In this document: positions 7,049 to 61,567 of the stretch, piece by piece | How the letters are laid out: each line of letters begins with the position of its first letter | How positions within the stretch are numbered: the first letter of the stretch is position 1 | NCBI GenBank assembly: GCA_016931155.1 | Contig: JAFGFJ010000001.1 | Coordinates: forward strand, 7,050-71,049 | Direction of reading: 5' to 3' | Source of the DNA: Candidatus Dojkabacteria bacterium | Lineage (GTDB): Bacteria; Patescibacteriota; Dojkabacteria; B142; JAFGFJ01 | Length of the DNA: 64,000 nucleotides | The notes under the pieces: generated by a model | Database searches by the model: none | What the model was told of the DNA's origin: nothing | What the model saw: the letters and a program-made list of their open reading frames with translations, nothing else | Translations under genes and position numbers: made by a program

Positions 7049-7902
7049 CGAAAAGAAGAAACAAAAAAATATCAGAAATGGAACTGGAAATACTTACTTC
7101 CTTTATTCTTGGAAAACCAAAAGAGTTTTCGATCGCAAATCCGGATTTTGTACTTTCAAAGTTAGAAAAAAAGAAGTTGAGTGAACTAATAAAAAGACGC
7201 TTGAGTCAGGAACCTCTTGCCTATATCCTCGGAAAAAAAGAATTTTTCGGTCTTGATTTCAAAGTCAACAAAAATGTTCTAATCCCGCGACCCGAAACCG
7301 AACACCTTGTCGAAGAAGCAGTAAAAGCGATCATAGGAATCAGAGACAATCAGCCGGATAGAGTCATAAAAATACACGAACTTGCAACTGGATCAGGTGC
7401 TATCATAGTCAGTCTGGCACACGAACTCGTTAGTAGAAGATATGAGAAGAATTTGGAATTCGAGGCAAGCGATATTTCAGAAGAAGCAATGAAAGTTGCA
7501 AGAGAAAATGCAAAAAAACTTCTCAAGGAAAATAACCACATTTTATTCCGTCAAATAGATATTCTCAAAACAGAAATCAATATATCTGCAGATATATTGA
7601 TTTCAAACCCGCCCTACATACCTTCTACAAAGATTGCCCAACTCGACAAAACCATACGAAATTTCGAGCCCTGGCTGGCTCTGGACGGAGGTAATGATGG
7701 ACTTGAATACTACCATGCAATATTCGGTCACATTCAAAGAACAAGACCAGGGATAGTCCTGCTTGAGATCGAAAGCACCAATACGGAAAAGATAAGAAAG
7801 ACGGCAAAAGATACTCTCAAGAATTATTCGGTAGACACAATAAAAGACCTGGCTGGAAAAGATAGAATATTAAAACTTAATTACCTCCCCTTTCCCCAAT
7901 AG
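7045..7902 (+). CDS. prmC: Release factor glutamine N5-methyltransferase PrmC/HemK
   Basis: NPPY motif ([13 protein letters not shown]), SAM-binding GSGAI motif, prfA-prmC gene order. GTG start overlaps the prfA stop. Confidence 0.8.
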
Positions 7903-13889: not shown

Positions 13890-14606
13890 CTATTGGGCGT
13901 TTTTTCTAAGATTGTACCCATACTTGAGCACACAAAAGCCGAGCAGTGTTAAAACCAAACCAGCAGCAATTCTGTCCTCGGATTTTCCAATAACAGCTGT
14001 TCGAGGTAGCTCTCCAGATGCAGGAATAGGAGAGGATGTTGGAGCTGGACTGCCTGTCGGACTCGGTGATGGCGATGGTGACGGTGACGGCGATGGTGAT
14101 GGCGATGGTGACGGCGATGCACCCGGCTTCACCGTAACACTAGCCGTAGCACTACAGGTTGCATTGGTACTTCCCGGAGTAGTTATGCTCAAGCTATAGG
14201 TACCAGATAGTTCCGCTTTCACCACTTGACCAAGACAATTGTACCCACCCCCCGTTGCATCGCAAGAAAGAACGGTTGATCCATTTGGAGAAGCCACAAC
14301 ATAACGACAATCTGTACACGGTGTATCGGTACTATTTCTAAACCCTCCCACTCTGAATGTCTCTCCTTGGTTTACAGTAAGATTTGGCTGCCACGGACAT
14401 TGCTGCCATGGCTCACACTGAACCCTTGCCTGAGTTGAATTATATGGGCAATCTCCTGCTGCTTTTCCCTCTTCAGGTGTTGTTGGAGCTTTCTGAGTTA
14501 GCCTCCAGGCAATAAAAACCGCTGCTATTCCAAGTGCCAATGCGATAGACACGAGAATAATAAAATAGGTTTTACGCTGTTTTTCTGTTTCTGCTATAGT
14601 TGCCAT
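13890..14606 (-). CDS. Cys-rich surface protein with N-terminal signal anchor, (SP)10 linker, and an LPRTA motif followed by a hydrophobic segment and basic tail (sortase-signal-like C-terminus)
   Basis: N-terminal TM (FIILVSIALALGIAAVFIAW). 10 Cys in the middle domain. SPSPSPSPSPSPSPSPSPSP repeat. C-terminus ...ELPRTAVIGKSEDRIAAGLVLTLLGFCVLKYGYNLRKNAQ. The DNA is visibly GC-richer than its flanks. Confidence 0.6.
   Translation of the reverse strand: MATIAETEKQRKTYFIILVSIALALGIAAVFIAWRLTQKAPTTPEEGKAAGDCPYNSTQARVQCEPWQQCPWQPNLTVNQGETFRVGGFRNSTDTPCTDCRYVVASPNGSTVLSCDATGGGYNCLGQVVKAELSGTYSLSITTPGSTNATCSATASVTVKPGASPSPSPSPSPSPSPSPSPSPTGSPAPTSSPIPASGELPRTAVIGKSEDRIAAGLVLTLLGFCVLKYGYNLRKNAQ
14040..14112. 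repeat. Hexanucleotide tandem repeat (GGTGAT/GGCGAT/GGTGAC)x~12 that encodes the (Ser-Pro)n linker on the minus strand
   Basis: Seen directly: ggtgatggcgatggtgacggtgacggcgatggtgatggcgatggtgacggcgatgc. Confidence 0.8.
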
Positions 14607-15945: not shown

Positions 15946-16695
15946 CTACAAACACTCCTTGTCTTCCGAAAGCTCTAAAAGAATATCAGGGGGTTCCACT
16001 CCTAAAGCGTGGTAAAGAGCATTAATCGCATAACCACCAACGGACTGGAGATATTTAAGATACTCTATCGACTTTTCAGGAGCATTAGGTATCATCTCAA
16101 GATCTATACGTATCGGATTATCAACCTCCATCTCAGCCTCCATCTCATCTGGATCCGATAAAACCCTCATAGCATCTTCACGTGACTCAAATCCAAGATG
16201 CAGTAGTACTTTTGCGTTACAACTCTTATCTAAAAGAGTTACCTCTCGACAACCATCTTCATCGTATTTCAGATTTGCCTCAAAGCCTTTTCTCTTAAGC
16301 TCCTCAAGGATAGTTTCTGCTTTTGCGGGTATCTGCCATTGCACTTCACTGTTTTTTTCCTCAGGAGAAAAATAAAAAAAGAATGTAACTTTCCCCCATT
16401 CTCCACTTTCTAGAGAGTAGGCAGCTTTCAACTCGACCAAAATCTGATTTAAAACACTATCATAAACGTCTACCAACCATATCTTAGTTCCAGGAAACAG
16501 CCGTCGCGATTCCCCCCTAAGACACTGCTCTATCTGTTCAGAACCTTCCACAAGAAGTTGATCATGAGTTGAGTCACCACAGTGTGAAGACCATTTTTTG
16601 AGCCAGTCGGCAATCCATCGGGGGTTGGGAATAGATAAACGAAATCCAGTTGCTCCCGGGTCACTCTCGTTTGTAGATCTATATTCATCTTTCAT
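15946..16695 (-). CDS. Hypothetical protein
   Basis: 249-aa ORF with coding-like composition and no recognisable motif. Confidence 0.4.
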   Translation of the reverse strand: MKDEYRSTNESDPGATGFRLSIPNPRWIADWLKKWSSHCGDSTHDQLLVEGSEQIEQCLRGESRRLFPGTKIWLVDVYDSVLNQILVELKAAYSLESGEWGKVTFFFYFSPEEKNSEVQWQIPAKAETILEELKRKGFEANLKYDEDGCREVTLLDKSCNAKVLLHLGFESREDAMRVLSDPDEMEAEMEVDNPIRIDLEMIPNAPEKSIEYLKYLQSVGGYAINALYHALGVEPPDILLELSEDKECL

Positions 16696-16796
16696 CTTGT
16701 ATATTACCTAAAAGCAAAGAATTATAGCGTAAATTTTGAAAAGTTACTTGAACACAACTGAGTTTCGTTCTATATTGTCTCATCCTAATTATTCTT

Positions 16797-17063
16797 ATGA
16801 AGATTCCTAAAAGATTTAAAAACCTTTTCTGGGACATCCATACACAAAGTCTGGACTACTCTGATCACAAAAATTTTGTGATCTCCAGAATTCTCGAAAA
16901 GGGAAATTTTGATGTTATCAGATGGCTATTTAAGTGTTACTCAATAAGTGAGATACTCCATACAATAAATACATCTACAAATCTCTCCCGGTCAACAATA
17001 TGCCTCTGGAAAATGGTATTATTGCCTCATGGGCAAGCTCTACAAGGAAGTTCTGAGGTCTGA
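16797..17063 (+). CDS. Small hypothetical protein immediately upstream of, and overlapping, the AbiEii-like gene. Possible cognate antitoxin-like partner or a fragment.
   Basis: 88-aa ORF overlapping the next gene by 35 nt. This arrangement is typical of TA-like pairs. No motif was identified. Confidence 0.3.
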   Translation: MKIPKRFKNLFWDIHTQSLDYSDHKNFVISRILEKGNFDVIRWLFKCYSISEILHTINTSTNLSRSTICLWKMVLLPHGQALQGSSEV

Positions 17064-17661
17064 TAGCTTTCAACTGCTCCAGAACATTAGTCAAAACAAG
17101 TCTCTTAATACATTTTTCCTTGCCGGAGGAACTTCTCTTGCTCTACAGATCGGACATAGAATTTCAGATGATCTGGATTTTTTTACAAAAAGCGAGTTCA
17201 AAAGTAATTTATTGAGCGAAATTCAGGGGAAATATGAAGTAATCACACTTCATGACAATTCGATAGAGATTATTCAAAGCAATACGAAAGTATCATTTCT
17301 CTTTTTTGCATTTCCATTATACAAAAAGCTTAAAAAGGCAGGAAATATCAGGCTGGCAGATCCGATTGATATTGGGCTGATGAAGCTTCTGGCTCTCCAG
17401 GGCAGAACAACAAAAAAAGATATAGTCGATTTGTATTTCATTGACAAGGAAATAATCCAGCTTGAGAAACTTCTGAAGCTATTCGAATCTCATTTTCCTA
17501 AAGAAAGTTTCAACAGCTACTCAAGCATCAAGGAATTATTTAACCTTGAAGAACTCGCAGCAGAACCCATGCCAAAAATGATAAAAAAAGTAAAGTGGGA
17601 GGAAGCTCTGGAAAAAGTGTTAGGAGAAGTTTCAAGATTTGTCAGGCAAACTGTCGACTAA
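17029..17661 (+). CDS. Nucleotidyltransferase of the AbiEii/DUF1814 (type IV TA / abortive infection) family; shorter than typical
   Basis: FFLAGGTSLALQIGHRISDDLDFFT matches the AbiEii N-terminal GGTAL...R.SeDlDF signature from memory. It is 210 aa versus the usual ~280-300. Confidence 0.45.
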   Translation: MGKLYKEVLRSDSFQLLQNISQNKSLNTFFLAGGTSLALQIGHRISDDLDFFTKSEFKSNLLSEIQGKYEVITLHDNSIEIIQSNTKVSFLFFAFPLYKKLKKAGNIRLADPIDIGLMKLLALQGRTTKKDIVDLYFIDKEIIQLEKLLKLFESHFPKESFNSYSSIKELFNLEELAAEPMPKMIKKVKWEEALEKVLGEVSRFVRQTVD

Positions 17662-17902
17662 CTTGGGTTGAAATAAAAGCTGACCAACTTGACAATTTTG
17701 CGAAATATATACTAAGTATGTTTCATACAATATCTTTCGCAAATTATGAAAACAAAAAGATTACAAAAACTTATTTCTTTTCCTAAACCTCTTTATGAAA
17801 TTATGGGAAAAAAGCCAACAAATATGGTATGCTTTTCCCTGAATATATTCGATACGTTACATTGAAACACATTCAAGAAGAAGAAAAAATTCTTGATAAA
17901 TC

Positions 17903-18640
17903 CTAATATAAAACATCAAACCCATTTGATTTTATATCCCCATTTAACATCCCAATCACTGCCATACCTATATGATATCCCAGATTTACAGGCACTGCAT
18001 TACCAATCTGTCTATATTGAGAAGCGACAGATCCTTCGAACTTCCAGTCATCTGGAAAGGTTTGAATCCTTGCATATTCTCTTATAGTCAACGGGCGTGT
18101 TTCTATCGGATGACATCTTTCCGTCTGCTTTTGTGCAGGACTCGTTGTAAGTGTCAAAGAGGGTTCATCCCAACTTAACCTACGAGCCATCCCTGTTCTT
18201 CCGCCGGTATGAAAAAAGCTGGCACCCATATATTCTCTCTGTAGCTCTTTGGGTAGATCCCTCCAATAACCTCCAGGAGGTATAAGTTTCATGATTTTAG
18301 CTTTTGACTTAGGATAACTATAGCCCTCCGATATCGGGACACCTTCCAAAGCCTCTCTCAAACTAACAATATAATTCCTTTCCCTGGGAAAAAGAATTGA
18401 AAGATTTAACCCTTTTTTAACACCTATTATTATCAGCCTTTCTCTTTTTTGTGGAGTATCTAGATACTGCGAACGCAACACTTTGTACTTTACCATATAC
18501 CCTATTTCATTAAGAGCACTTAGCATTGTCTCCAATGTTTTACCTTTATCATGTTTCAATAGACCTCTAACGTTCTCACCTATGACAATCTTTGGACTTA
18601 TTTCATTAAATTCTCTAGCACTTGACAGAATTAGACCTAC
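17903..18640 (-). pseudogene. DNA (cytosine-5)-methyltransferase, N-terminally truncated. Motifs VI-X and the TRD are present; motifs I-IV, including the catalytic PCQ, are absent.
   Basis: The in-frame translation upstream of the annotated TTG start gives ...REFNEISPKIVIGENVRGLLKHDKG (motif VI ENV). Further motifs follow: TPQKRERLIIIG (motif VIII), TIREYARIQTFPDDWKF (IX), QYRQIGNAVPVNLGYHIG (X). Only ~210 nt remain between the frame's upstream stop and the neighbouring gene. That leaves no room for the ~130-aa SAM-binding/catalytic N-terminal half. Confidence 0.7.
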
Positions 18641-18811: not shown

Positions 18812-20338
18812 TTAACCGAATTCAAATATCCCATTCGCTTCCCTTTCCAGAAGTTTCTTTGCAAGGTTCATTCTTCCTGCCGACGTTGCATATAGCGTAA
18901 TCAGTTTTTCACCTTCTGCAACAGTGTCCCCTGTCACTTTGTGAAAATACATCCCGGCATTTTTTATCCTTGGATTTCCGAGAGCATGACCAACCTCAAA
19001 AATCTTTTTATTACTCATATGTTTGATCTCACCTCCTTGATAAGATATATAGTGATGAACAATTTCACCAAGCTCGATTTTATCCGAACTGACAGTTGCA
19101 TCCCCTCCCTGATTCCCGATTATCTCCTTCAACTTTTTCAATGCCTGTCCGGAAGTAATAATTTCTTTTGCCATATCAAAACCCTTCCCGACCGGAGCTT
19201 TTTCCGTAAGCTCAATCAATTTTCCTGCCATTTCAAGTGCATCCAGCTCCAGTGTTTTTGATTTTTCAGGATGATTTTCCAAAACTCTCAGGAATTCAAT
19301 ACATTCAAGAGCAGGACCCACTGCTTTGCCGTCTATTCCTGTAATATCCCTTTTGTGAACAGACAGATGAATCCCGAATTTGGCACAAACTCTTTCAAAA
19401 GTTTCTTTCACTTTTTGAAATTCTTCTTCTTTTATCTTCGCACCGGACCCTACCGGCACATCAAAAACCACATGTGTCACTCCCTGAGCAATTTTTTTTG
19501 CAACAATACTTGAGACAAATTTATCAATAGATTCCATCCCAAGAGGCTTCTGAACCTTGATAATTTCATCATCAGCAGGAGCAAGATCAAGACCTCCTCC
19601 CCACACCATAAAAGCATTACTTTTAAAAATCATCGACTCCAGAGCTATCTTATCAAATGTCATCGGCATAAGTACTTCAAGCATATCTGTCGTAGCGCTG
19701 GAGGTTGTTATGGCACGTGTTGAAGTATTTGGTACTTTCATCCCTTCAATTGAAGCAACAATTGAGACAATGATAGGAGTAATTCCTTTCCCTGCAACCC
19801 CTCCAATTGAGTGTTTGTCTGCAACAATCCCGTCAAACGCAAGTCTTTCTCCTGTTTCAGCAAGAGCTTTTGTCATGTACTCGATTTCTTCAGTATCAAA
19901 ACCAGGACTATACCCCGCGGCGGCAAAATAGGTTGTGAGAGTACTCCCAAGCCTTCCATTTGCAATATCACGCATGATTTTGAAGAAGTCTTCATATTTA
20001 AGCTTTTCTCCTAACAATTTTCTTCTTATACTCTCTACAGCATCTGAATTGGAAATAAAATCAACCTTTATTACTTCATTCTCTTTTAGATTGTACTTTG
20101 ACCAAATATCTTCATATAAACCAATTCGACCTGCTTCAACAATCGAACTTGTAACGTCCGCAATGACAATAACTCCATCTCCATATGAATCCCAGCGAAC
20201 TTCAAGAGCATCTCCAGGGTTTATCCCGTATTCTTTGGCATCCGAATCGTTAACAATAACAACGAATTCAGATCCGCTTGAAATATCAAGTTTTTTTGCT
20301 GAAAGGAAATGCGACATTTTATTCTCAAACCTAACCAA
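18812..20338 (-). CDS. deoA: AMP phosphorylase / archaeal-type thymidine phosphorylase family
   Basis: N-terminal AMP-phosphorylase-type extension. Glycosyltransferase family 3 core with KHSIGGVAGKGITP, equivalent to the DKHSTGGVGD motif. Adjacent to RbcL-like and R15P isomerase genes. Confidence 0.75.
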   Translation of the reverse strand: MVRFENKMSHFLSAKKLDISSGSEFVVIVNDSDAKEYGINPGDALEVRWDSYGDGVIVIADVTSSIVEAGRIGLYEDIWSKYNLKENEVIKVDFISNSDAVESIRRKLLGEKLKYEDFFKIMRDIANGRLGSTLTTYFAAAGYSPGFDTEEIEYMTKALAETGERLAFDGIVADKHSIGGVAGKGITPIIVSIVASIEGMKVPNTSTRAITTSSATTDMLEVLMPMTFDKIALESMIFKSNAFMVWGGGLDLAPADDEIIKVQKPLGMESIDKFVSSIVAKKIAQGVTHVVFDVPVGSGAKIKEEEFQKVKETFERVCAKFGIHLSVHKRDITGIDGKAVGPALECIEFLRVLENHPEKSKTLELDALEMAGKLIELTEKAPVGKGFDMAKEIITSGQALKKLKEIIGNQGGDATVSSDKIELGEIVHHYISYQGGEIKHMSNKKIFEVGHALGNPRIKNAGMYFHKVTGDTVAEGEKLITLYATSAGRMNLAKKLLEREANGIFEFG

Positions 20339-20372: not shown

Positions 20373-21749
20373 TTATATCTCTCCTCTAGGCTCCATAATA
20401 CTCACAGAATGAATTTGCTCCTTTTTCTTTTCTATCTCTGTTTTTTTTGTTTTCACCAAAGCATATACGTTCGTATAGGGATTTTCATGCTCAAAAGCAT
20501 TTTCACCGAAAACACCCCACTTATCAAGAGCCGCTTTCAGTTCCACGCTTTCTTTTGATATTTCACGTAAGGTTTTACCATTAACAACTCCCTCTATTGC
20601 TTTTCTGACTGTTCTAGCTCCAGATTCCGCACCCATAGGATGAGCAAGTACCCCTCCTCCCATATTTATCACTTGATCTTTGCCGAGTAATTCAAATAAT
20701 TTTTCTATATGTCCTGGATGAAGCCCACCAGAACTCACCGGCATAATAGAATTCAGCTTGTGCCAGGAATCTCTTAAAAAATAATTAACATCCAAAACAC
20801 TTTCTTTTTCTTCCTTTTTCTTCCCCACCGAAGTTGGAATATGAAGGAAGTCAATACCAGCAAGTCTTGAGATCTTTGCCATAACCATGAGTGATAGACC
20901 ATTGTAGTTTCCTGTTGATAATCGGTGACCGTGAATAATAAGATCAAGATTTTGATCTCGCATAAACTGCACACCACTCATTCCTACAGACAATAGATCC
21001 ACCATAACTGCAATCCCTCCCATCTCTTGTACAAATTTTGCCCTTGCGTACATCTCAGAAATCCTTGCTGTCACATTAGGAATATACATTTTCTTCTCAC
21101 CTGTAACCTTCTCAACTTCCCGAAGAGCTTGCATAACAAGATTAACCCTTTCATAAAAAGGGCATATATCCTGGTCTGTCAGGTTTTCGTCATCTCGAAC
21201 AATATCTGCCCCTCCCGCCCAGGCTTCGTATGCCAGTTTTGCAAAAGACTGAAGAGATAACCCCACCTTTGGCTTTATTACGACAGAAACCAAGGGTCTG
21301 TCATAAATCCTAAGTTTATCTCTTATCCCAATAAGACCAAAAGCAGGTCCTTTGTTTGCCATTACATAATCCTGAGGAAACTCTACCTCCATTACCTTCA
21401 AATCGTCTATTACACTTAGTGATGAGAGGTTGCCAGAGATTATACTCAGAAGCTGAGGCATATTATCTGTTTCAAAAAGACCAAGTGGATAAGCAATCTT
21501 TACGGTTCCCTTCTTTTCTCCATCCTCAAGAACCGATAAGACTTTTGCTGCATATTTTGCAACAATATCTTTACTGAGATCGGGAATATCAATCCATGTT
21601 CCAACCGAGGACTCGATTGCCATAGCTTTTGATGCATCGGAAAGTGCAGCATTAGATTCAACCCTGAAAGTAACTAAAACATAGTTTTCCGAGTCAATCT
21701 CTTCCCCAGAAGCAAGATAAGAGAATTTCTGGTTATAACTCATGGGCAA
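20373..21749 (-). CDS. rbcL: RuBisCO large-subunit homolog (form III / II-III-like) with Arg replacing the carbamylated active-site Lys (RDDE instead of KDDE)
   Basis: Collinear with RbcL: SIISGNLSS (N123 region), VVIKPKVGLS (K175/K177), AWAGGADIVRDDENL (aligns to GGLDFTKDDEN), IIHGHRLS (H294/R295), RLAGIDFLHIPTSVGKKKEE (H327/loop-6 K), PVSSGGLHPGHI (S379-G381), MGGGVLAHPMG (G403/G404). The Arg codon CGA was checked directly in the DNA. Confidence 0.8.
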   Translation of the reverse strand: MPMSYNQKFSYLASGEEIDSENYVLVTFRVESNAALSDASKAMAIESSVGTWIDIPDLSKDIVAKYAAKVLSVLEDGEKKGTVKIAYPLGLFETDNMPQLLSIISGNLSSLSVIDDLKVMEVEFPQDYVMANKGPAFGLIGIRDKLRIYDRPLVSVVIKPKVGLSLQSFAKLAYEAWAGGADIVRDDENLTDQDICPFYERVNLVMQALREVEKVTGEKKMYIPNVTARISEMYARAKFVQEMGGIAVMVDLLSVGMSGVQFMRDQNLDLIIHGHRLSTGNYNGLSLMVMAKISRLAGIDFLHIPTSVGKKKEEKESVLDVNYFLRDSWHKLNSIMPVSSGGLHPGHIEKLFELLGKDQVINMGGGVLAHPMGAESGARTVRKAIEGVVNGKTLREISKESVELKAALDKWGVFGENAFEHENPYTNVYALVKTKKTEIEKKKEQIHSVSIMEPRGEI

Positions 21750-22058
21750 TTTTTGTATTGAAAACCTAAAACATACTACAACTAATACTCATGGAGGTAA
21801 AGACCATCCAGTAATAACAAAGAAGAGGGCTCCTAACTTTTCTTTATGAAAAGTAACTGGAACCCTCTCAGCAAAAGGCGGTAAACAATAGCAAACATAA
21901 ACTAATGAATTTGTAAAAGCTTGTCAAGAGATTTAATAAATATTTTGTACAGAAGTGTTGGATAAATTTCTTCAATTGGAAAACTGCTCTTTTTTCCTCA
22001 ATTTGTTACGAAGCTTACTAGCAGTTGCAATCAACTCTGCTAATAACTAGCCAAAAGC

Positions 22059-22991
22059 TTATTGATTCAACCAAGGATAAAGCTCCAACGCCTTATCCTT
22101 AACCTCACTACTGGTTATAACTCCAGCCTCAGTGATATACCCGGTAACAAATTCAGGTCTTATCAGATCAAAAGCCGGGTTAATTATTTTTAGTTCCATC
22201 GGAGCATCTTCCCAGACTTCCTTTGATGGTCTCATCTCAATCTCAGGAAATTTTATATCCTTTTTCAGATTTAATTTAAGGAGAGTAGTTGCAACATAAA
22301 ACTTGTCTTTCCCTGCCTTCGCAGACAGTGCCATTGAATATGTTCCAATTTTATTGATAAAGCTCCCATCCGAAAGAAGCTCATCATTACCAACCAGTAC
22401 ACACTCAACAGGCAGATACCTGTCATCTTCAATAAAGGAAGGTGCAGCAGAATCCACAATTTGAAACACTTTGGCATTGGCGTTGGACAGTTTTTTTGCA
22501 GTAATCCTTCCCTGAAAGAGAGGTCTGGTTTCAGTTGATACAACACTTAACTTGGGATTCCTTTTTGAAAGCTCAATTAGTATTTTTGTAGAAGTAGACG
22601 AATGGCAGTGTGTAAGTATGACATCAAAATTTTTCAGTTCTTCGACTCCTGCTTTAAAAATTTCTTCTTTTGATTTATTAATTAGCTCAACATATTCCTC
22701 AATCGCCAAACTTATTGCCTCCTTTGCTTCTACCAAATCTTCAAAGTTCTTTATTTTCCCAAGAATGTATCTAACTCCATTTCCTGCAAGCGGTTCATTT
22801 TCCCTGGCTTCACTCAGTTCGATTCCTGTTTTCTCTATCTCCTCAAGAAAAGAACTGACAGAATCAGCAGTTGATTCGTTTGCAGTAATCTTAATACCGC
22901 CAAGGGTTGCAAGAGCAACATTGGTTGCACCCTGTATCTCAATATTCTTAATCTTCGCTTTGATTTCTTTTATTTGATTCAAATAACTCAT
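22059..22991 (-). CDS. Ribose-1,5-bisphosphate isomerase (eIF-2B alpha/beta/delta-like family)
   Basis: eIF2B-like fold signatures (GATNVALATL..., ILTHCHSSTSTKIL, VLVGNDELLSDGSFINKIGTYSMALSAKAGKDKFYVA). Clusters with the RbcL-like and AMP phosphorylase genes. Confidence 0.7.
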   Translation of the reverse strand: MSYLNQIKEIKAKIKNIEIQGATNVALATLGGIKITANESTADSVSSFLEEIEKTGIELSEARENEPLAGNGVRYILGKIKNFEDLVEAKEAISLAIEEYVELINKSKEEIFKAGVEELKNFDVILTHCHSSTSTKILIELSKRNPKLSVVSTETRPLFQGRITAKKLSNANAKVFQIVDSAAPSFIEDDRYLPVECVLVGNDELLSDGSFINKIGTYSMALSAKAGKDKFYVATTLLKLNLKKDIKFPEIEMRPSKEVWEDAPMELKIINPAFDLIRPEFVTGYITEAGVITSSEVKDKALELYPWLNQ

Positions 22992-43823: not shown

Positions 43824-44879
43824 TCATATAAACTCATCTCCTGTAAGTTTTACTTTCTCGAGGAGAGCAATCTCATCAAGTAAAAGCTCTGTCCCCCTTA
43901 CAACAGCTGTTACAGGATCTTCAGCAATAATCACTGGAGTATCAAGTCTGCTCTCTAAGTACTTATCTATTCCCCGTATCAATGCCCCGCCTCCTACAAC
44001 CGTTATCCCTCTTTCAAGAAGGTCAGAAAGGATTTCGGGTGGGGTCTGCTCTATCGCATCCTTTACAGCCTCAGCGATCTTATCCAGAACCCTCATCATC
44101 GCTTCCCTCATTTCTATACTTGTAACCTTTACGATTTTTGGAAGACCAGTCATAAGATCCCTTCCTTTCATATCTATATCCATCTCTTCCTTCATCGGAT
44201 AAGCAGACCCAATAGCAATCTTTATATCTTCAGCCGATCTGTCACCAATAAGCAGGTTGTATTTATGCCTTGCGTAATTAACTATCTCCTGATCCATTTC
44301 ATCTCCTGCTATTCTCACCGTATTATCAACAACTATGCCCCCTAACGAAATGACTGCTATATCTGTCGTTCCGCCTCCAATATCAATTATCATACTACCT
44401 GACGCATCTTCTATTGGTAGCCTTACCCCGATAGCAGCAGCCATTGGTTCTTCTATTATATAAGCTTTTCTTGCCCCTGCAGAAAGTGCTGCGTCCGCTA
44501 CTGCTCTCCCCTCCACTTCCGTAATAGATGAAGGCACTCCCATAACTACTCTCGGCTTTGGAAGCTTAAATAACTTCGGGTACTCATCATGAACCCTCCT
44601 GATAAAGTAGCGAATCATTGCCTCTGTGGTATCGAAATCGGAAATTACTCCATCACGGAGAGGTCTCACTGCAACAATATTTGAGGGAGTTCTTCCTATC
44701 ATTCTACGTGCCTCAGTCCCTACTGCCAGCACCTGCTTAGTATTTTTGTTGAGTGCCACAACAGAAGGCTCATTGAATACTAACCCCAGTCCTTTTATAG
44801 AAACAAGCGTGCTGGTAGTACCGAGATCCATCCCGATATCATGCGTAACCATGCCCCATATCGAATCCATTAAACTCAT
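43824..44879 (-). CDS. mreB: Rod shape-determining actin homolog MreB
   Basis: Actin-fold phosphate motifs (GMDLGTTSTL, IIDIGGGTTDIAV, VVGGGALIRG) and the MreB consensus. Confidence 0.85.
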   Translation of the reverse strand: MSLMDSIWGMVTHDIGMDLGTTSTLVSIKGLGLVFNEPSVVALNKNTKQVLAVGTEARRMIGRTPSNIVAVRPLRDGVISDFDTTEAMIRYFIRRVHDEYPKLFKLPKPRVVMGVPSSITEVEGRAVADAALSAGARKAYIIEEPMAAAIGVRLPIEDASGSMIIDIGGGTTDIAVISLGGIVVDNTVRIAGDEMDQEIVNYARHKYNLLIGDRSAEDIKIAIGSAYPMKEEMDIDMKGRDLMTGLPKIVKVTSIEMREAMMRVLDKIAEAVKDAIEQTPPEILSDLLERGITVVGGGALIRGIDKYLESRLDTPVIIAEDPVTAVVRGTELLLDEIALLEKVKLTGDEFI

Positions 44880-53388: not shown

Positions 53389-54093
53389 ATGAAAGAAATC
53401 ACGTTGTTCCTTTTAGAAAACGGTGTTAGAGAGGAAACCTTGATACTGCTTTTGATGCTTCCGATTATAAGTACAGTTATAGGATTTGGCAGGCATTTCG
53501 TCGGGATAAGAACAATTGGAATATACACCGCAATCGTCCTGACTTATGCTTTCTATCTACTGGGCATCACTGAGACTAACGGACCAAGCAATATTCTTCT
53601 GGGAATGAGACTCGGAATCGGCATAACGGTTGCAGTATATGCCATTGCTTCCATTGGACAGCTAATGACAAAAAAAATCAGGCTTCATTATCAACCAAAG
53701 CTTGCAATTATTATCTCAATAATTGCAATACTTGCATTTATTGCTCTACTTCTTTTTGCAAAATTTGGACAAGTGACTATTACAAGAGTAAATGCTATAG
53801 CAATTATTTTAATAGTAACAACATCTGAACAGTTTATAAGCAGTTTTGTTAAGAAAAATTTTTCCTCTGCGGTGCTTTTAAGCTTTGAGACAATGATAGT
53901 TTCTCTGATTTGTTATTCTCTGATTTCATGGCCAAGCCTCCAAAATTTCATACTTACCTACCCTATCGTTGCTACTCTGGCAATCCCTTTCAATCTGATT
54001 ATAGGCAAATTCACAGGACTTAGACTTAAAGAACACCTGCGCTTCAGAGATTTACTAAATAATAATGAGCCTGGCAACGATTCTCAACAATAG
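53389..54093 (+). CDS. Seven-TM membrane protein, first gene of the ATP-grasp island. Resembles the 7TM module that accompanies RimK-related ligase systems.
   Basis: Seven hydrophobic helices are predicted by eye and there is no soluble domain. Its stop overlaps the start of the next gene by 29 nt. Confidence 0.55.
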   Translation: MKEITLFLLENGVREETLILLLMLPIISTVIGFGRHFVGIRTIGIYTAIVLTYAFYLLGITETNGPSNILLGMRLGIGITVAVYAIASIGQLMTKKIRLHYQPKLAIIISIIAILAFIALLLFAKFGQVTITRVNAIAIILIVTTSEQFISSFVKKNFSSAVLLSFETMIVSLICYSLISWPSLQNFILTYPIVATLAIPFNLIIGKFTGLRLKEHLRFRDLLNNNEPGNDSQQ

Positions 54094-55516
54094 AAAAAAA
54101 ATTCTCGGTCTAAACGAGAGGAACCTTAAGTATATCCGACCTTTCAATAAAAAAAAGGCTAAATTGATTGCGGATAATAAGCTCCTTACCAAGAAATATC
54201 TGGAGAAGGCAGGAATCCCTATTCCGAAACTTCTGGCAGTCATTAAAAATGAAGAAGAGCTTGAAAATTTCGATTGGGATTCACTGCCAAAAAGCTTTGT
54301 TGTAAAGCCTGTTATGGGACATGAAGGAGGCGGAATAGAAATTTTTTACAACAAAGATAACAAGGGAAGATGGATAAGGGCGGACAAAAGTAAAGTAAAT
54401 CTGTCGGAGCTTAAGGCATACATCTTTGACATTCTGGATGGGAAATACTCATTGCACAATACACCAGATATGGCCTTTTTCGAAGAAAGAGTAAAACTAC
54501 ATAAAAGATTTAGATACCACACCTACAAAGGAGCCCCGGATGTTCGCATAAATATCTTCAATAATATTCCTATCATGGCATATATCAGGTTTCCAACAAG
54601 AGAATCCCGGGGAAAAGCGAATATGGCAATGGGAGCAATTGGTACAGGAATAGATATGGCTAGCGGAGTTACCACCACTTCAGTTTACGGAAAAGGGAGT
54701 GGAGGAAGAGGAACACCGATTGAATGTGTACCTGGTACGAAAATCAGGCTTGCAGGACTTAAGATTCCTTATTGGAATAAAATGCTGCGTTATGCCATTG
54801 AAGTTCAAAAAATTACAAAACTGGGTTATGCCGCAGTCGACTTTCTTTTGGACAGGGATCTTGGACCACTTGTAGTTGAAATAAATGCCCGCCCGGGTCT
54901 TTCCGGGCAGATTGCAAATCAAGATGGACTTGCCTGGAGGCTCAAAAAAGTCGCAGGACTCAAAATAAAGACCGTAGAGAAAGGTGTGAGACTGGCAAAA
55001 GATCTTTTTGGAGGCGAAATTGAAGAGGAAATCGAAAGTATCTCGGGAAAAGAAGTAATAGGGATTTATGAGACCGTCATACTCATAGGAAAAGAAGGTA
55101 AAGAGCTCGAGAGAAAAGCAAAGATAGATACAGGAGCTGATAGTACTTCTATTGATATAGAACTGATAAAACAGCTTGGATATGAAGATCTGGTGAAAGA
55201 GATTGAGTCTAAAGCTATTCCAGATAATATGAATAGAGACGAAGGACTTGAGCTTGCCAGAAAACTTGAGGCAGATCTTTTGCCGAAATATCCAGAAATT
55301 GCTTATCTGGCATATATAAAGTCCAGTCATGGGACAAGTGTAAGACCGAGTATAAAGATTTCTTTAAGGCTGGGAGATACACAGTTTGAAACTACGGCAA
55401 CAATTTATGATAGAAGTAAATTAACCTACCCCGTAATCGTAGGGAGAAAGTCTCTTTCAAGGTTCTTGGTCGATCCAACAAAAACTCGACCCTTCAGCGG
55501 AGAACAAAAAAAATAA
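54065..55516 (+). CDS. ATP-grasp ligase (RimK-related / sugar-transfer-associated type) fused to a C-terminal retropepsin-like aspartic peptidase domain (DTGA)
   Basis: ATP-grasp motifs FVVKPVMGHEGGGIEIF, DVRINIF and AAVDFLLDRDLGPLVVEINARPGLSG. The C-terminal ~150 aa carry KIDTGADSTSIDIEL (a clan AA D-T-G-A active-site signature) and ...VIVGRKSL. Confidence 0.65.
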   Translation: MSLATILNNRKKILGLNERNLKYIRPFNKKKAKLIADNKLLTKKYLEKAGIPIPKLLAVIKNEEELENFDWDSLPKSFVVKPVMGHEGGGIEIFYNKDNKGRWIRADKSKVNLSELKAYIFDILDGKYSLHNTPDMAFFEERVKLHKRFRYHTYKGAPDVRINIFNNIPIMAYIRFPTRESRGKANMAMGAIGTGIDMASGVTTTSVYGKGSGGRGTPIECVPGTKIRLAGLKIPYWNKMLRYAIEVQKITKLGYAAVDFLLDRDLGPLVVEINARPGLSGQIANQDGLAWRLKKVAGLKIKTVEKGVRLAKDLFGGEIEEEIESISGKEVIGIYETVILIGKEGKELERKAKIDTGADSTSIDIELIKQLGYEDLVKEIESKAIPDNMNRDEGLELARKLEADLLPKYPEIAYLAYIKSSHGTSVRPSIKISLRLGDTQFETTATIYDRSKLTYPVIVGRKSLSRFLVDPTKTRPFSGEQKK

Positions 55517-55534
55517 TTTTTATAGAGATATAGG

Positions 55535-56443
55535 ATGGTTTCGAATTTATTGTTTATTACATCAACCCTAAAATACAATACATATACCGACAGACAGTTT
55601 TTGACTGAGGCAAAAAATCTGGGGTTAAATGTACTTGCCCTCAACCCAAACGCATTTTCTTATTCAGTGAATAGATCAAATAATTTCATAATATGGAACA
55701 AGGATAAAGAGTTTCATGTACCTCTAGATTCAATAGTCTACAGAAAGTCTATAAGTAAAGCTGGAGTTGGTTTAGAAGATATTCTAAAAAGGTATGGAGC
55801 AACTGGATTTGAAGAAAATCATACTAAGAAAAAAATCAAAGGTATGGAGAAATTTAGTGACTATGTAGCATATGCGGAGGATAATGTAAAAATTCCAAAC
55901 TCATATCTATTAACTAATAAGAATCAAACCACTTATGCAATAGATTATTTTGATGGAAAGTTTCCATTAATAGTGAAAAAAATATCTGGTACCCACGGTA
56001 TTGGAATATTTGTTGCAGAAAGCAAAAGGGCACTTTTACCAATTGTGGAATATCTATTGAATGAAGGAGAACAATCTCCAATAATCATTCAAGAATTCAT
56101 TGAAGCTTCAGAGGGGAAAGACATAAGAATTATTGTTTTGGATGGAAAAGTAGTCAGTGCAGTATTAAGAGATAATACGGGCAAAGACTTTAGATCAAAT
56201 ATTTATCAAGGAGCAAGTCCCAAGCTTATTGAACTCACCCCAGAACAGGAAAAGATAGCTATAAATGCCGCAAAGGCAGTAGGGTTAGAATTTGCCGGTG
56301 TAGATGTGCTTTATGCCAATGAAGGATACGCAATTACTGAGGTCAACTCGCCATGTGATTTTAGTTTTGTTGAACAGACAACAAAGGTTCCCGTAACAAA
56401 AATGCTGATCGAGTATTTAATTAACAAGGCTTCAAATAAATAA
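55535..56443 (+). CDS. rimK: RimK-family alpha-L-glutamate ligase-like ATP-grasp enzyme
   Basis: PLIVKKISGTHGIGIFV, DIRIIVLDGKVV and RSNIYQGASPKLIELTPEQEKIAINAAKAVGLEFAGVDVLYANEGYAITEVNSPCDF are collinear with the RimK C-terminal signature. Confidence 0.7.
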   Translation: MVSNLLFITSTLKYNTYTDRQFLTEAKNLGLNVLALNPNAFSYSVNRSNNFIIWNKDKEFHVPLDSIVYRKSISKAGVGLEDILKRYGATGFEENHTKKKIKGMEKFSDYVAYAEDNVKIPNSYLLTNKNQTTYAIDYFDGKFPLIVKKISGTHGIGIFVAESKRALLPIVEYLLNEGEQSPIIIQEFIEASEGKDIRIIVLDGKVVSAVLRDNTGKDFRSNIYQGASPKLIELTPEQEKIAINAAKAVGLEFAGVDVLYANEGYAITEVNSPCDFSFVEQTTKVPVTKMLIEYLINKASNK

Positions 56444-56466
56444 TTTACGTTGAGAATAATCACGAC

Positions 56467-57417
56467 ATGAAAATACTAGTGCTTTCTACAAGAAAATCTT
56501 CCTCATTCTCTAGCAAGCAAAATGAACTGCTTTATAGAAAATGGGCCGTATACGGTCAGTCCAAAGGCCATGTTATTGCTCTCTCAGGAATAGACTATTT
56601 TGATGAAGTTTCTTTTTCCAAAGCATTCAGTTGGGACAAAAACGGGAACAAAATAGAAGAAACAAATTTTGCTCCTGATGTTATTTATTTAAAAGTTGTG
56701 AGCAGTAAAATATTTGAGAATTACGGTAAACTAAGACTAATCACTTCAAAATTTCCTGCCGTAAATTCTTTGGATTTCGTAATAAGTCTCGAAAGCAAGG
56801 TAAATCAGAGCTTAATGTTTAAAGAATATTTGCCCGAGACTTTTATAGTTACCAATTCCCACCAAATTGAAGAGATATTAAATTCAAATGACAAAGACTA
56901 TTTGTTAAAACCTGATTTATCTACTGGAGGACAAAACATATTGTTCCTCAGAAAGAACAAATACCCTAGAGACATTAGCCATGCTTTTCTAGTCCAGGAA
57001 ATGATAGACAATACCAAAGGTACCCCAGGCATAACAGATGGAAGGCACGACATGCGCTTTATGTTTGTGGGTGGAGAGCTGAAATACGCATTGCTTCGAA
57101 AACCAAAGGGAGATTCATTTTTTGCAAATGCTGCAAAAGGGGGCTCAACTCAGATTCTTGATGCAAAAAAGATAGATAAAGACATCATGAAACTACCGCT
57201 TGAAGTAGCAAAAATAATTCTTTCAAAATGGGGAAAAGATAATATTTTTACAGTGGACGTGATTGTAGGTAAAGGCGAAAAGGTTTACCTTATGGAGGTA
57301 AATACGTTCCCTGGAATTTCCTATATTGACGAATATATGCAATTTACCATGTTCGACTCTTACTTTAATCTATTTTCAAAAATTATTGATTCATATGCAA
57401 ATAAAACCTCAAAGTGA
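56467..57417 (+). CDS. ATP-grasp domain protein (RimK/YheCD-like), third ligase paralog
   Basis: YLLKPDLSTGGQNILFL, FLVQEMID, HDMRFMFVGGELKYALLR, KVYLMEVNTFPGIS (the E-x-N Mg-binding motif). Confidence 0.6.
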   Translation: MKILVLSTRKSSSFSSKQNELLYRKWAVYGQSKGHVIALSGIDYFDEVSFSKAFSWDKNGNKIEETNFAPDVIYLKVVSSKIFENYGKLRLITSKFPAVNSLDFVISLESKVNQSLMFKEYLPETFIVTNSHQIEEILNSNDKDYLLKPDLSTGGQNILFLRKNKYPRDISHAFLVQEMIDNTKGTPGITDGRHDMRFMFVGGELKYALLRKPKGDSFFANAAKGGSTQILDAKKIDKDIMKLPLEVAKIILSKWGKDNIFTVDVIVGKGEKVYLMEVNTFPGISYIDEYMQFTMFDSYFNLFSKIIDSYANKTSK

Positions 57418-60562: not shown

Positions 60563-61567
60563 CTAGCTCACCCTCAAACTCCTCTTTATAATTTCAAGAT
60601 TCTGTATTGCTTCGGCAATTCCTTTTATAACAGCATAAATCGGCTCATCGGCAACATAAACAGGAACACCCGTTGCCCTTGTAAATAGTTCATCCATCCC
60701 CCTTAACTGTGCAGTACCTCCTGTCAACACAATTCCACGATCGATAATATCTGAAGCAAGCTCTGGAGGAGTATCTTCAAGAACCTTTTTTATCGACCCG
60801 ATAATCTGATTGAGAGTAAGCTTTATGCCTTCGGCGATATCATTTGAATTGACAACAATTGAGGTTGGAAGCCCTGATGATGCATCACGTCCTTTCACCT
60901 CCATTTCAAGCGGCTTTTCCATATTCATAGCACTTCCTATCTGAATTTTTGCTTTCTCTGCCATTTGCTCACCTATCACAAGATTGAGTTTCTTCCTCAC
61001 CGTATTCATAATTGCCTCATTCACCGCATCCCCTGCAACACGCTTCGAATCAAATCTCACAATACCGTTCATAGAAATAACAGCAATTTCTGAAGTCCCT
61101 CCCCCCATATTTACTATCATGTTCCCGGAAGATGTGCTTATTGGCATTCTTGCTCCAATTGCCGCAGCGATCGACTCCGGGATAAGATAAACCCTGCCTG
61201 CCCCGGCTGAGGATACCGCTTCTATTACAGCTCTTTCCTCCACAGAAGTAACACCAGAAGGAACACTAATCATAACCTCGGGTTTGAAAAGCCTTGATCT
61301 TCCAATAGCTCTATCAAGAAAAGCCTTAAGAAGAGCCTCAGTGAGCTTATAACTTGCAATAACTCCTTGTCTCAAAGGTCTTCTCGCAACAATACCTGTA
61401 GGCACTTTCCCCAGCATTTCCCTCGCCTCCTTCCCAACTGCAAGAATTTTCTTTTCTTCGACAGAAACAGTTACAACAGTAGGCTCTTCGATAACAATTC
61501 CTTTACCCTCAACCCAGACAATTGAGTTTGCCGTACCAAGGTCAATTCCAATTTTTTTGCCCGCCAT
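60563..61567 (-). CDS. Second MreB/Mbl-like actin homolog
   Basis: IGIDLGTANSIVWV, VPSGVTSVEERAVIEA, MIVNMGGGTSEIAVIS, VLTGGTAQLRGMD. Full actin-fold phosphate and adenosine motifs; ~45% identical by eye to the mreB at 43824-44879. Confidence 0.8.
   Translation of the reverse strand: MAGKKIGIDLGTANSIVWVEGKGIVIEEPTVVTVSVEEKKILAVGKEAREMLGKVPTGIVARRPLRQGVIASYKLTEALLKAFLDRAIGRSRLFKPEVMISVPSGVTSVEERAVIEAVSSAGAGRVYLIPESIAAAIGARMPISTSSGNMIVNMGGGTSEIAVISMNGIVRFDSKRVAGDAVNEAIMNTVRKKLNLVIGEQMAEKAKIQIGSAMNMEKPLEMEVKGRDASSGLPTSIVVNSNDIAEGIKLTLNQIIGSIKKVLEDTPPELASDIIDRGIVLTGGTAQLRGMDELFTRATGVPVYVADEPIYAVIKGIAEAIQNLEIIKRSLRVS

Follow-up and report, generated by a model that had tools for sequence, protein, structure and literature searches.

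What has become of a RuBisCO (carboxylase/oxygenase of ribulose-1,5-bisphosphate, RuBP) whose activating lysine has been replaced by arginine, and which is still encoded among the genes that should feed it with substrate? The question is raised by an rbcL homolog on the minus strand (20373..21743) of a 64,000-nucleotide stretch of a Candidatus Dojkabacteria genome (GenBank assembly GCA_016931155.1, contig JAFGFJ010000001.1, forward-strand positions 7,050 to 71,049), hereafter the window, to whose numbering all coordinates refer. The lysine concerned, Lys201 (spinach numbering is used for canonical residues), is treated as the one untouchable RuBisCO residue, its carbamate being the accepted base for C3 deprotonation. 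The same carbamate, with D203 and E204, also ligates Mg2+ (PMC8920986), and in a deep mutational scan of Rhodospirillum rubrum RuBisCO all substitutions of the equivalent K191 formed the catalytically dead reference set (PMC11839469). Judged from sequence, fold and gene order, the window protein is very probably not a carboxylase, and we hold with similar confidence that it is maintained for some function. Taken together, these points somewhat favour the reading that, as a positional ortholog of form III-c RuBisCO in Dojkabacteria, it is carboxylase-dead but maintained and amounts to a RuBisCO-like protein (RLP) arising in place; whether its function is catalytic rather than binding-only is about evenly balanced.

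The rbcL homolog and its predicted fold

The gene encodes 456 amino acids from an ATG at 21743. A first-pass annotation of the DNA had given the longer open reading frame (ORF) 20373..21749, which runs to 458 amino acids from an in-frame TTG at 21749, two codons upstream of the ATG; its assignment to RbcL holds, on the minus strand, with the ATG at 21743 rather than 21749 as the likely start. The protein is 100% identical to NCBI MBN1915392.1, annotated as the ribulose-bisphosphate carboxylase large subunit of a Candidatus Dojkabacteria bacterium, and both RuBisCO Pfam domains were detected (PF02788, RuBisCO_large_N, 85 bits; PF00016, RuBisCO_large, 222 bits). An AlphaFold2 model with a 110-sequence alignment as input reached a predicted local distance difference test (pLDDT) score of 90.6 and was used in place of the single-sequence model made without an alignment, which was unusable (pLDDT 39.7). 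The best PDB matches of the model were the form III RuBisCO entries 2d69, 2cwx, 8dht and 3a12, with template modelling (TM) scores of 0.84-0.93, and the large-subunit architecture of an N-terminal domain and a TIM-barrel catalytic domain was present by Pfam and in the AlphaFold2 model. The C-terminal tail (residues 412-456; 20376..20510, minus strand) was predicted to be disordered.

Arginine at the Lys201 position

Within the motif GGADIVRDDEN (21183..21215, minus strand), Arg183 stands at the position of the carbamylated Lys201, encoded by CGA at 21195-21197, and the Mg2+ ligands Asp185 and Glu186 (D203 and E204) are kept. HMMER alignments to the form III structures 8dht, 2cwx and 6hun placed no indel in or near the motif, pairing 'ggadivRddenl' with 'ggmdyiKddenl' (8dht), 'ggidllKdden' (2cwx) and 'ggidlvKdden' (6hun), such that GGADIVRDDENL of the window protein lies gap-free opposite 'GGxDxxKDDEN'. 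In a MAFFT alignment of the best 120 database matches, the Lys201 column held K in 111 sequences, R in five, L in two, and Q and F in one each. The replacement of the catalytic lysine by arginine at the structurally equivalent position, which the first-pass annotation had put forward together with a multiple alignment as the means of checking it, is therefore confirmed by both alignments, with no indel shifting the motif. In a superfamily survey of 153 representatives of 50%-identity clusters, 35 had no lysine in this column, and the window protein was the only one among those 35 with all other sites intact.

There is next to no probability that the arginine is spurious, whether through an error of sequencing or assembly, a wrong alignment or reassignment of the CGA codon, and nothing was found in favour of this. 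An independent assembly, a Logan contig of SRR13394437, showed zero differences to the window DNA across 5.4 kb, and this identity and the presence of arginine in four orthologs from other samples rule out a sequencing or assembly error, while the gap-free motif rules out misalignment. Elsewhere in this gene CGA encodes the invariant Arg295 equivalent (R274), so that the codon reads as arginine here, and the orthologs use both the CGN and the AGR codon families, ruling out reassignment.

The rest of the active site

Of the 18 catalytic and RuBP-binding sites checked, 17 were kept in the window protein. These were E60 (window E44), T65 (T49), W66 (W50), N123 (N105), K175 (K157), K177 (K159), D203 (D185), E204 (E186), H294 (H273), R295 (R274), H327 (H301), K334 (K308), S379 (S338), G380/381 (G339/340) and G403/404 (G363/364). 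The exception was His298, the residue that binds the P5 phosphate of RuBP. In the loop after beta-5 (HGHRLSTG-----NYNGLS; 20892..20933, minus strand) H294 and R295 are retained, the His298 equivalent is Thr277, and a five-residue deletion follows directly after Thr277 relative to the canonical counterpart, HGHRAMHGAFTHSDRHGIS. The stretch carrying H327 and loop 6, HIPTSVGKKKEE (20808..20843, minus strand), retains His301 (H327) and Lys308 (K334) and has three changes, G329 to Pro303, M335 to Lys and G337 to Glu; the hinge glycines are invariant in carboxylases. The claim that every other active-site residue was conserved thus stands for 17 of the 18 sites, but not for His298 with its adjoining deletion, nor for the loop-6 hinges. 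More widely, among the 93 positions with at least 95% conservation in 110 relatives that have the lysine, the window protein was altered at 16, compared with 0-4 in canonical sequences. The altered positions cluster beside K175/K177 (the equivalents of G171S and I173V), at either end of loop 6, and where GGGIHGHP has become GGGVLAHP.

These residues bear on whether the protein could still be an RuBP carboxylase with another means of activation, either a metal held by Asp185, Glu186 and the substrate, or a guanidinium-bridged bicarbonate. Such residual activity would be in keeping with the 17 retained canonical residues, including K334 and its loop-6 lysine partner E60, with a modelled fold that appears indistinguishable from form III, and with the apparently intact, syntenic adenosine monophosphate (AMP) salvage operon described below. 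However, the carbamate is both Mg2+ ligand and enolisation base in every characterised RuBisCO, and K191 substitutions are treated as dead (PMC11839469); with the activating lysine gone, activation by CO2 and Mg2+ would not be possible. The hinge glycines and His298 are changed, and relatives with the same arginine have lost one or more of K334, H327 and E60, so that a function shared by the clade would need no carboxylation residues. The protein also falls below the cut-offs of the form III equivalog and RbcL subfamily models and has evolved faster than its flanking genes. We therefore regard continued carboxylation as very unlikely, and nothing was found in favour of the suggestion, made in the first-pass annotation, of a different activation chemistry that preserves it. 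The missing His298, the changed loop-6 hinges, a form III score short of the threshold and the raised rate of evolution would all fit divergence away from carboxylation.

Relatives that share the arginine

Arginine at this position was common to four orthologs, P0002 (78% identity to the window protein, P0001), P0003 (68%), P0014 (54%) and P0005 (52%). Close orthologs all carrying KDDE, the pattern expected of a strain-specific inactivating mutation, were not what was found; the arginine is clade-wide and not a strain-specific lesion. It is encoded by CGA in the window gene, CGT in P0002 and P0005, AGG in P0003 and AGA in P0014. The count of two substitutions separating the codon from AAA or AAG is correct for CGA, whereas the AGA and AGG of orthologs are one step away from lysine; since both arginine codon families are in use and AGR is one step from Lys AAR, a path from AAR through AGR to CGN is indicated. 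Bootstrap values in neighbour-joining trees, the one tree method used and with five Arg sequences in all, were 95 for the five Arg proteins, 98 for the three closest members and 100 for the Arg clade with its Lys-bearing sister P0004. The arginine arose once, in the ancestor of the five-member clade, and was kept through synonymous codon turnover. The five proteins are each a singleton cluster. A profile search with the six-member clade alignment against 5.8 billion clusters gave no extra members, scores falling from 744 to 632 bits, and scans of genome and metagenome contigs with the protein found only form III genes of ~40% identity and no further clade members.

Fixed in 5/5 Arg proteins, at positions that are invariant in 110 Lys-bearing sequences, were the derived states S153, V155, R183, I193 and P303; each is in or beside the active site, with S153 and V155 by K175/K177 and P303 by H327, and the loss of H298 belongs to the same cluster of changes. 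Across P0001-P0003, 17/17 of the other catalytic and binding residues were identical despite a three-way identity of 61% (0.61^17 = 2e-4). Elsewhere more residues have changed: in the Lys-bearing sister P0004, His298 is already gone and Lys334 has become Glu; P0005 carries H327Q and K334R; and in P0014, E60 is His and T65/W66 and K334 are gone. The order of changes seen here would be His298 and the loop-6 hinge, then Lys201, then Lys334. Dojkabacteria III-c proteins, canonical ones included, have a tail past the usual KWG end with a TY(V/I)H(S/A)LV-type motif, and the TNxYALVK motif in the C-terminal tail of the window protein is shared by the canonical proteins. In the Arg clade and P0004 this tail is ~12 residues longer and ends in R-[DE]-[DE], a clade-specific extension in which R453 is invariant in 6/6 members.

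Operon and synteny

Directly upstream of rbcL lies e2b2, a homolog of the eIF2B-family ribose-1,5-bisphosphate (R15P) isomerase (22059..22991, minus strand; Pfam IF-2B 192 bits), and directly downstream a deoA-type AMP phosphorylase homolog (18812..20338, minus strand; TIGR03327 AMP_phos 413.7 bits), for which an independent gene call in locus L016 gives 501 amino acids and the start is probably an ATG at about 20317. The TIGR00511 scores of e2b2 were 177.8 bits in the window, 179.6 in a canonical Lys-bearing genome and 182.6 in the ortholog at locus L001, and the deoA ortholog of the canonical genome scored 438.4 bits with AMP_phos. The best NCBIfam models for the two window proteins, ribulose_e2b2 (178 bits) and AMP_phos (414 bits), were both under their equivalog cut-offs, and those of canonical Lys-bearing Dojkabacteria were similar (180 and 438 bits). 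Reading by eye found the motifs THCHS and GNDxxxxDGxxxNKIGT in e2b2, and within the Arg clade identity is 65-75% for both the e2b2 and the deoA protein.

On the minus strand the three genes follow one another in a single orientation, and their order is the same in all orthologous loci. Arg-clade members with enough flanking sequence share the locus cysS - CCA-adding enzyme - beta-CASP - e2b2 - rbcL - deoA (- ychF - S6 - SSB - S18), so the AMP-phosphorylase and R15P-isomerase neighbourhood noted as intact at first pass is present and syntenic in every clade member. The canonical Lys-bearing Dojkabacteria III-c genes are at the same chromosomal position, from which it follows that the Arg proteins are vertical descendants of canonical III-c RuBisCO that diverged in place. 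No second RuBisCO was found within the 64-kb window in the ORF list or by domain scans.

A truncated e2b2 beside P0004 (a 90-aa IF-2B fragment) was considered as a sign of pathway decay and rejected, as here the 3' half of e2b2 has been duplicated in inverted orientation, an assembly artefact (L005 1-600, at the left end of the ENA contig).

Selection and rate of evolution

No stop codon or frameshift was present in 6/6 genes examined. Pairwise proportions of nonsynonymous differences (pN) were 0.12-0.33 against 0.61-0.80 for synonymous differences (pS), giving a nominal ratio of nonsynonymous to synonymous rates (dN/dS) of 0.06-0.21 that is rough only, since synonymous sites are saturated. 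RbcL identity was 11-14 points under the mean of the flanking genes (e2b2, deoA, beta-CASP, CCA and SSB) in 6/6 Arg-Arg genome pairs, compared with a difference of -6 to +9 points in four canonical pairs. RbcL evolves faster than its neighbours yet is under purifying selection, and because this selection has acted since the Lys-to-Arg event a function appears to have been retained.

The same divergence was visible in scores against hidden Markov models (HMMs). The window protein failed the form III equivalog TIGR03326 (rubisco_III; 409.0 bits, cut-off 497.45) and the RbcL subfamily model NF003252 (390.7 bits, cut-off 438), while canonical Dojkabacteria III-c proteins P0006 (537 bits) and P0010 (515 bits) passed TIGR03326 and the divergent group scored 337-417. 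Scores of e2b2 were equal in all genomes (178-183 bits) and those of deoA close (414 vs 438).

A functionless relic drifting towards deletion, with arginine as the commonest neutral replacement of lysine, would also evolve faster than its flanks and lose further catalytic residues progressively in its relatives; lysine has moreover been lost recurrently in other Dojkabacteria lineages, and the change from Lys to Arg is a single nucleotide change. Against such a relic, pN lies far under pS even with saturated synonymous sites, the ORFs are full-length in all ten divergent lineages, and arginine has been retained via four different codons. The active-site residues are fully kept in the three members that share 61% three-way identity, the derived changes are fixed and clustered at the active site rather than scattered, and small candidate phyla radiation (CPR) genomes are expected to shed dead genes. 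A relic is accordingly improbable in our estimation, and the signature looks like that of a remodelled site still under constraint, not of random decay.

Other Dojkabacteria lineages without the lysine

The lysine is also missing elsewhere in the phylum. Other residues in the Lys201 column were Gln (P0031), Phe (P0034) and Leu (P0063 and P0064), mostly with Lys334 changed too. The Leu and Phe proteins P0063 (locus L014) and P0034 (locus L015) are encoded in the same e2b2-rbcL-deoA locus, and P0063 comes from the same sequencing run as the window organism (SRR13394437). For the Leu and Phe genomes, the identity of deoA and SSB is 0.72-0.79 to canonical genomes vs 0.55-0.63 to the Arg clade; as their flanking genes are closest to canonical genomes, lysine loss in these genomes would be independent of the Arg clade. 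A single ancestral loss shared with the Leu, Phe and Gln group was rejected, since the RbcL tree grouping has only 70% bootstrap and the flanking genes disagree with it; the 70% grouping of ten divergent sequences is probably long-branch attraction. All ten of these divergent proteins, deficient in Lys201 or Lys334, keep K175, K177, D203, R295, S379 and G380, and nearly all keep E204, H294 and H327. This pattern points to a carboxylase constraint that was relaxed repeatedly in Dojkabacteria, not to one special arginine chemistry.

Several observations weigh against reading the protein as a maintained, carboxylase-dead ortholog. The operon context is exactly what a working carboxylase would have; as e2b2 and deoA are apparently intact, RuBP should still form and need a sink. 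P0005 and P0014 look, from their sequences, like cases of progressive decay of the RuBP site, and their losses imply that not every part of the RuBP site is needed clade-wide. Leu, Phe and Gln cannot mimic a cationic centre, which weakens the case for an innovation specific to arginine, and arginine may be merely the most conservative outcome of relaxed constraint, AAR to AGR being one step. In addition, the clade is known from five Arg sequences only, each a singleton cluster, and the saturation of synonymous sites tempers the dN/dS values.

Possible roles of the remodelled site

If the protein is, as we favour, a maintained ortholog that no longer carboxylates, the retained phosphate-site and acid/base residues would suggest that its ligand continues to be RuBP, or a pentulose bisphosphate much like it, delivered by the enzymes encoded next to it. 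Arg183 is close to isosteric with carbamyl-lysine yet carries a positive charge, and it probably salt-bridges Asp185 and Glu186 in the place of the carbamate and Mg2+; the net charge of the set {Arg+, Asp-, Glu-} would equal that of {carbamate-, Mg2+, Asp-, Glu-}. It is plausible, though unproven, that the guanidinium polarises the C2 carbonyl as electrophile, with a carboxylate or Lys175 as the base. The outcome could be a CO2-independent enolisation followed by epimerisation, isomerisation or beta-elimination, or else binding of the bisphosphate only. We consider it possible, if rather doubtful, that the arginine is a functional innovation of this kind, a built-in CO2- and metal-independent substitute for the carbamate-Mg2+ centre that enolises RuBP to a non-carboxylation product; xylulose-1,5-bisphosphate, a 3-keto isomer and a beta-elimination diketone would then be candidate products, each proposed tentatively.

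Binding without turnover would characterise a non-catalytic pseudoenzyme in which arginine locks the equivalent of the decarbamylated E-form and which holds RuBP as a buffer, a regulator or a partner of another RuBisCO. Non-carbamylated plant RuBisCO binds RuBP tightly, and P0001-P0003 retain all phosphate-binding residues while the chemistry residue is gone, in a gene under purifying selection. Two RuBisCO forms have been reported in some Dojkabacteria (PMC6389311), where a redundant copy could specialise; a second RuBisCO elsewhere in the genome could make the present copy redundant and would favour such a role. However, the window holds no second RuBisCO in its 64 kb, a pure binder would not need K175, K177 and D203, which are present in 10/10 deficient relatives, or H294 and E204, present in nearly all, and reduced CPR genomes rarely retain buffering proteins of 456 amino acids. 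We judge the pseudoenzyme unlikely.

Relation to known RuBisCO forms

The window protein resembles the III-c form of RuBisCO described from CPR bacteria (Jaffe et al. 2019, PMC6389311) in fold, domain pair, chromosomal position and e2b2-rbcL-deoA order. Its nearest relatives by sequence are Dojkabacteria III-c proteins (47-54% identity), some of them named 'Form III-c' by their depositors, and with these it shares the C-terminal tail motif. It differs from canonical III-c in the arginine at Lys201, in the loss of His298 with the 5-aa deletion, in the replaced loop-6 hinge glycines, in the change of 16/93 conserved positions, in failing the form III HMM cut-off and in evolving faster than its flanks. 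The III-c catalytic residues have been described as conserved save for a minority with a changed Asp, and a Lys201 change is not mentioned (PMC6389311). By descent the protein is form III-c; by functional definition it is outside III-c.

With the form IV RLPs, such as the 2,3-diketo-5-methylthiopentyl-1-phosphate (DK-MTP-1-P) enolase MtnW/YkrW, the R. rubrum-type 5-methylthioribulose-1-phosphate (MTRu-1-P) isomerase and OiaX/OiaC of apiose catabolism, it has in common a RuBisCO fold with a site unfit for carboxylation and, by analogy, a scaffold likely to serve chemistry of the enolisation type with a ketose phosphate as substrate. The pathways run in parallel too, from a phosphorylase through an eIF2B-family isomerase to a RuBisCO-family enzyme. 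With the MtnW and OiaX models, however, it scored 265 bits (NF007095, cut-off 409), 217 bits (TIGR03332, cut-off 514) and 189 bits (NF042437, cut-off 700), all under its form III score; both by PDB and by fold it matches form III best, it lies outside the form IV clade and the MtnW and OiaX subfamilies, and its context is AMP salvage and not methionine salvage or apiose/tetronate catabolism. Characterised RLPs are said, in the Tabita and Gerlt literature, to keep the carbamylated lysine and Mg2+ ligands and to lose phosphate-binding and loop-6 residues. The pattern in the window protein would be the reverse of this, as it keeps the phosphate and loop-6 lysine residues and loses the activating lysine.

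The nearest precedent is found in some III-like homologs of WS6 (Dojkabacteria), which share with the window protein the phylum, the inferred AMP pathway and missing catalytic residues (Wrighton et al. 2016, PMC5113843). WS6 III-like homologs without catalytic residues gave no detectable RuBP-dependent CO2 fixation as recombinant protein and their RuBisCO annotation was judged uncertain, and neither an Arg-for-Lys clade nor selection evidence was described (PMC5113843). The WS6 proteins differ further in having an ~11-aa insertion and in belonging to a III-like clade, not III-c. Laboratory mutants of Lys201 (R. rubrum Lys191) alter the same residue, with expected loss of carbamylation, Mg2+ binding and enolisation (PMC11839469, PMC8920986), but unlike these mutants of working enzymes the present protein is a natural variant, retained until synonymous sites were saturated and remodelled in loops 5 and 6. 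A literature search found no description of a Lys201-to-Arg clade or of recurrent Lys201 loss within III-c.

The e2b2-rbcL intergenic region and other features of the window

Between e2b2 and rbcL lies a conserved intergenic element (21815..21926, minus strand) made up of a TTGACA box, a GCTATTGTTTACCGCCTTTTGCTGAGAGG block, and a long, terminator-like hairpin followed by a U tract. In an alignment of the window with loci L001, L002 and L003 the element was also found at ~9850-9960 in L001 and ~1050-1160 in L002, and partly in L003; folding indicated that the stem sequence varies between loci while its pairing is maintained. The three closest Arg-clade loci have the element, whereas it is absent from the canonical locus L011 and from L014, L004 and L005, and no Rfam family matched it. 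It could be an e2b2 terminator, an rbcL-deoA leader or attenuator, or a small RNA, and a link to the changes in rbcL is unproven.

At the rbcL start itself, CTGCCC(A)ATG (21741-21749, minus strand) is kept in L001, L002 and L005 and approximately in L004 and L014. This start-codon block is conserved among genes whose proteins are only 45-57% identical, and the remaining upstream region is not conserved. The start has no Shine-Dalgarno-like sequence, and elsewhere in the window TGCCCATG was found just once.

The window is otherwise an ordinary piece of CPR chromosome of about 38% G+C content, with housekeeping genes for RF1, PrmC, SSB, YchF, the cysteinyl-tRNA synthetase CysRS, the CCA-adding enzyme, DnaX, RecR, topoisomerase I, DprA, a penicillin-binding protein (PBP) and two MreB proteins. 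The latter are full-length MreB/Mbl paralogs ~16 kb apart (43824-44879 and 60563-61567, both minus strand; PF06723 441 and 402 bits). Compared with L001, where ychF directly follows deoA, there is a ~3-kb insertion at 15946-18559. It contains a 249-aa ORF of unknown function (15946-16695, minus strand), an AbiEii-type toxin nucleotidyltransferase (17029-17661, plus strand) and a 218-aa C5 cytosine DNA methylase ORF (17903-18559, minus strand) that matches positions 116-321 only of the Pfam profile and is probably N-terminally truncated.

A 238-aa ORF (13890-14606, minus strand) had no Pfam match. Its N- and C-terminal hydrophobic segments, Cys-rich middle and long (SP)n repeat suggest a cell-surface protein. 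L001 has a PPC-domain protein near the position matching this ORF. Three consecutive ATP-grasp genes (54065-57417, plus strand) encode an ATPgrasp_ST domain fused to a Zn_protease domain, a RimK-like protein and a YheCD/GSH-S-like protein, which suggests a peptide-ligase or modification cluster.

Implications for CPR nucleotide salvage

In reconstructions of CPR metabolism, an RbcL encoded beside AMP phosphorylase and R15P isomerase is routinely taken to mean that the salvage pathway works and incorporates CO2. In the Arg clade and at least one further Dojkabacteria lineage the operon appears intact and the activating lysine is gone, and the prediction of the last step is probably wrong; because the carbamylated lysine is absent, the terminal carboxylation of RuBP to 3-phosphoglycerate (3-PGA) is predicted not to occur. 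The locus would represent a rare young case in which an RLP emerges from a genuine RuBisCO while the genomic context stays fixed, with canonical orthologs as controls. Should the more tentative reading of the arginine as a functional innovation be true, it would mean a new terminal step of AMP and nucleoside salvage in some CPR bacteria, and the origin of an RLP caught in the act.

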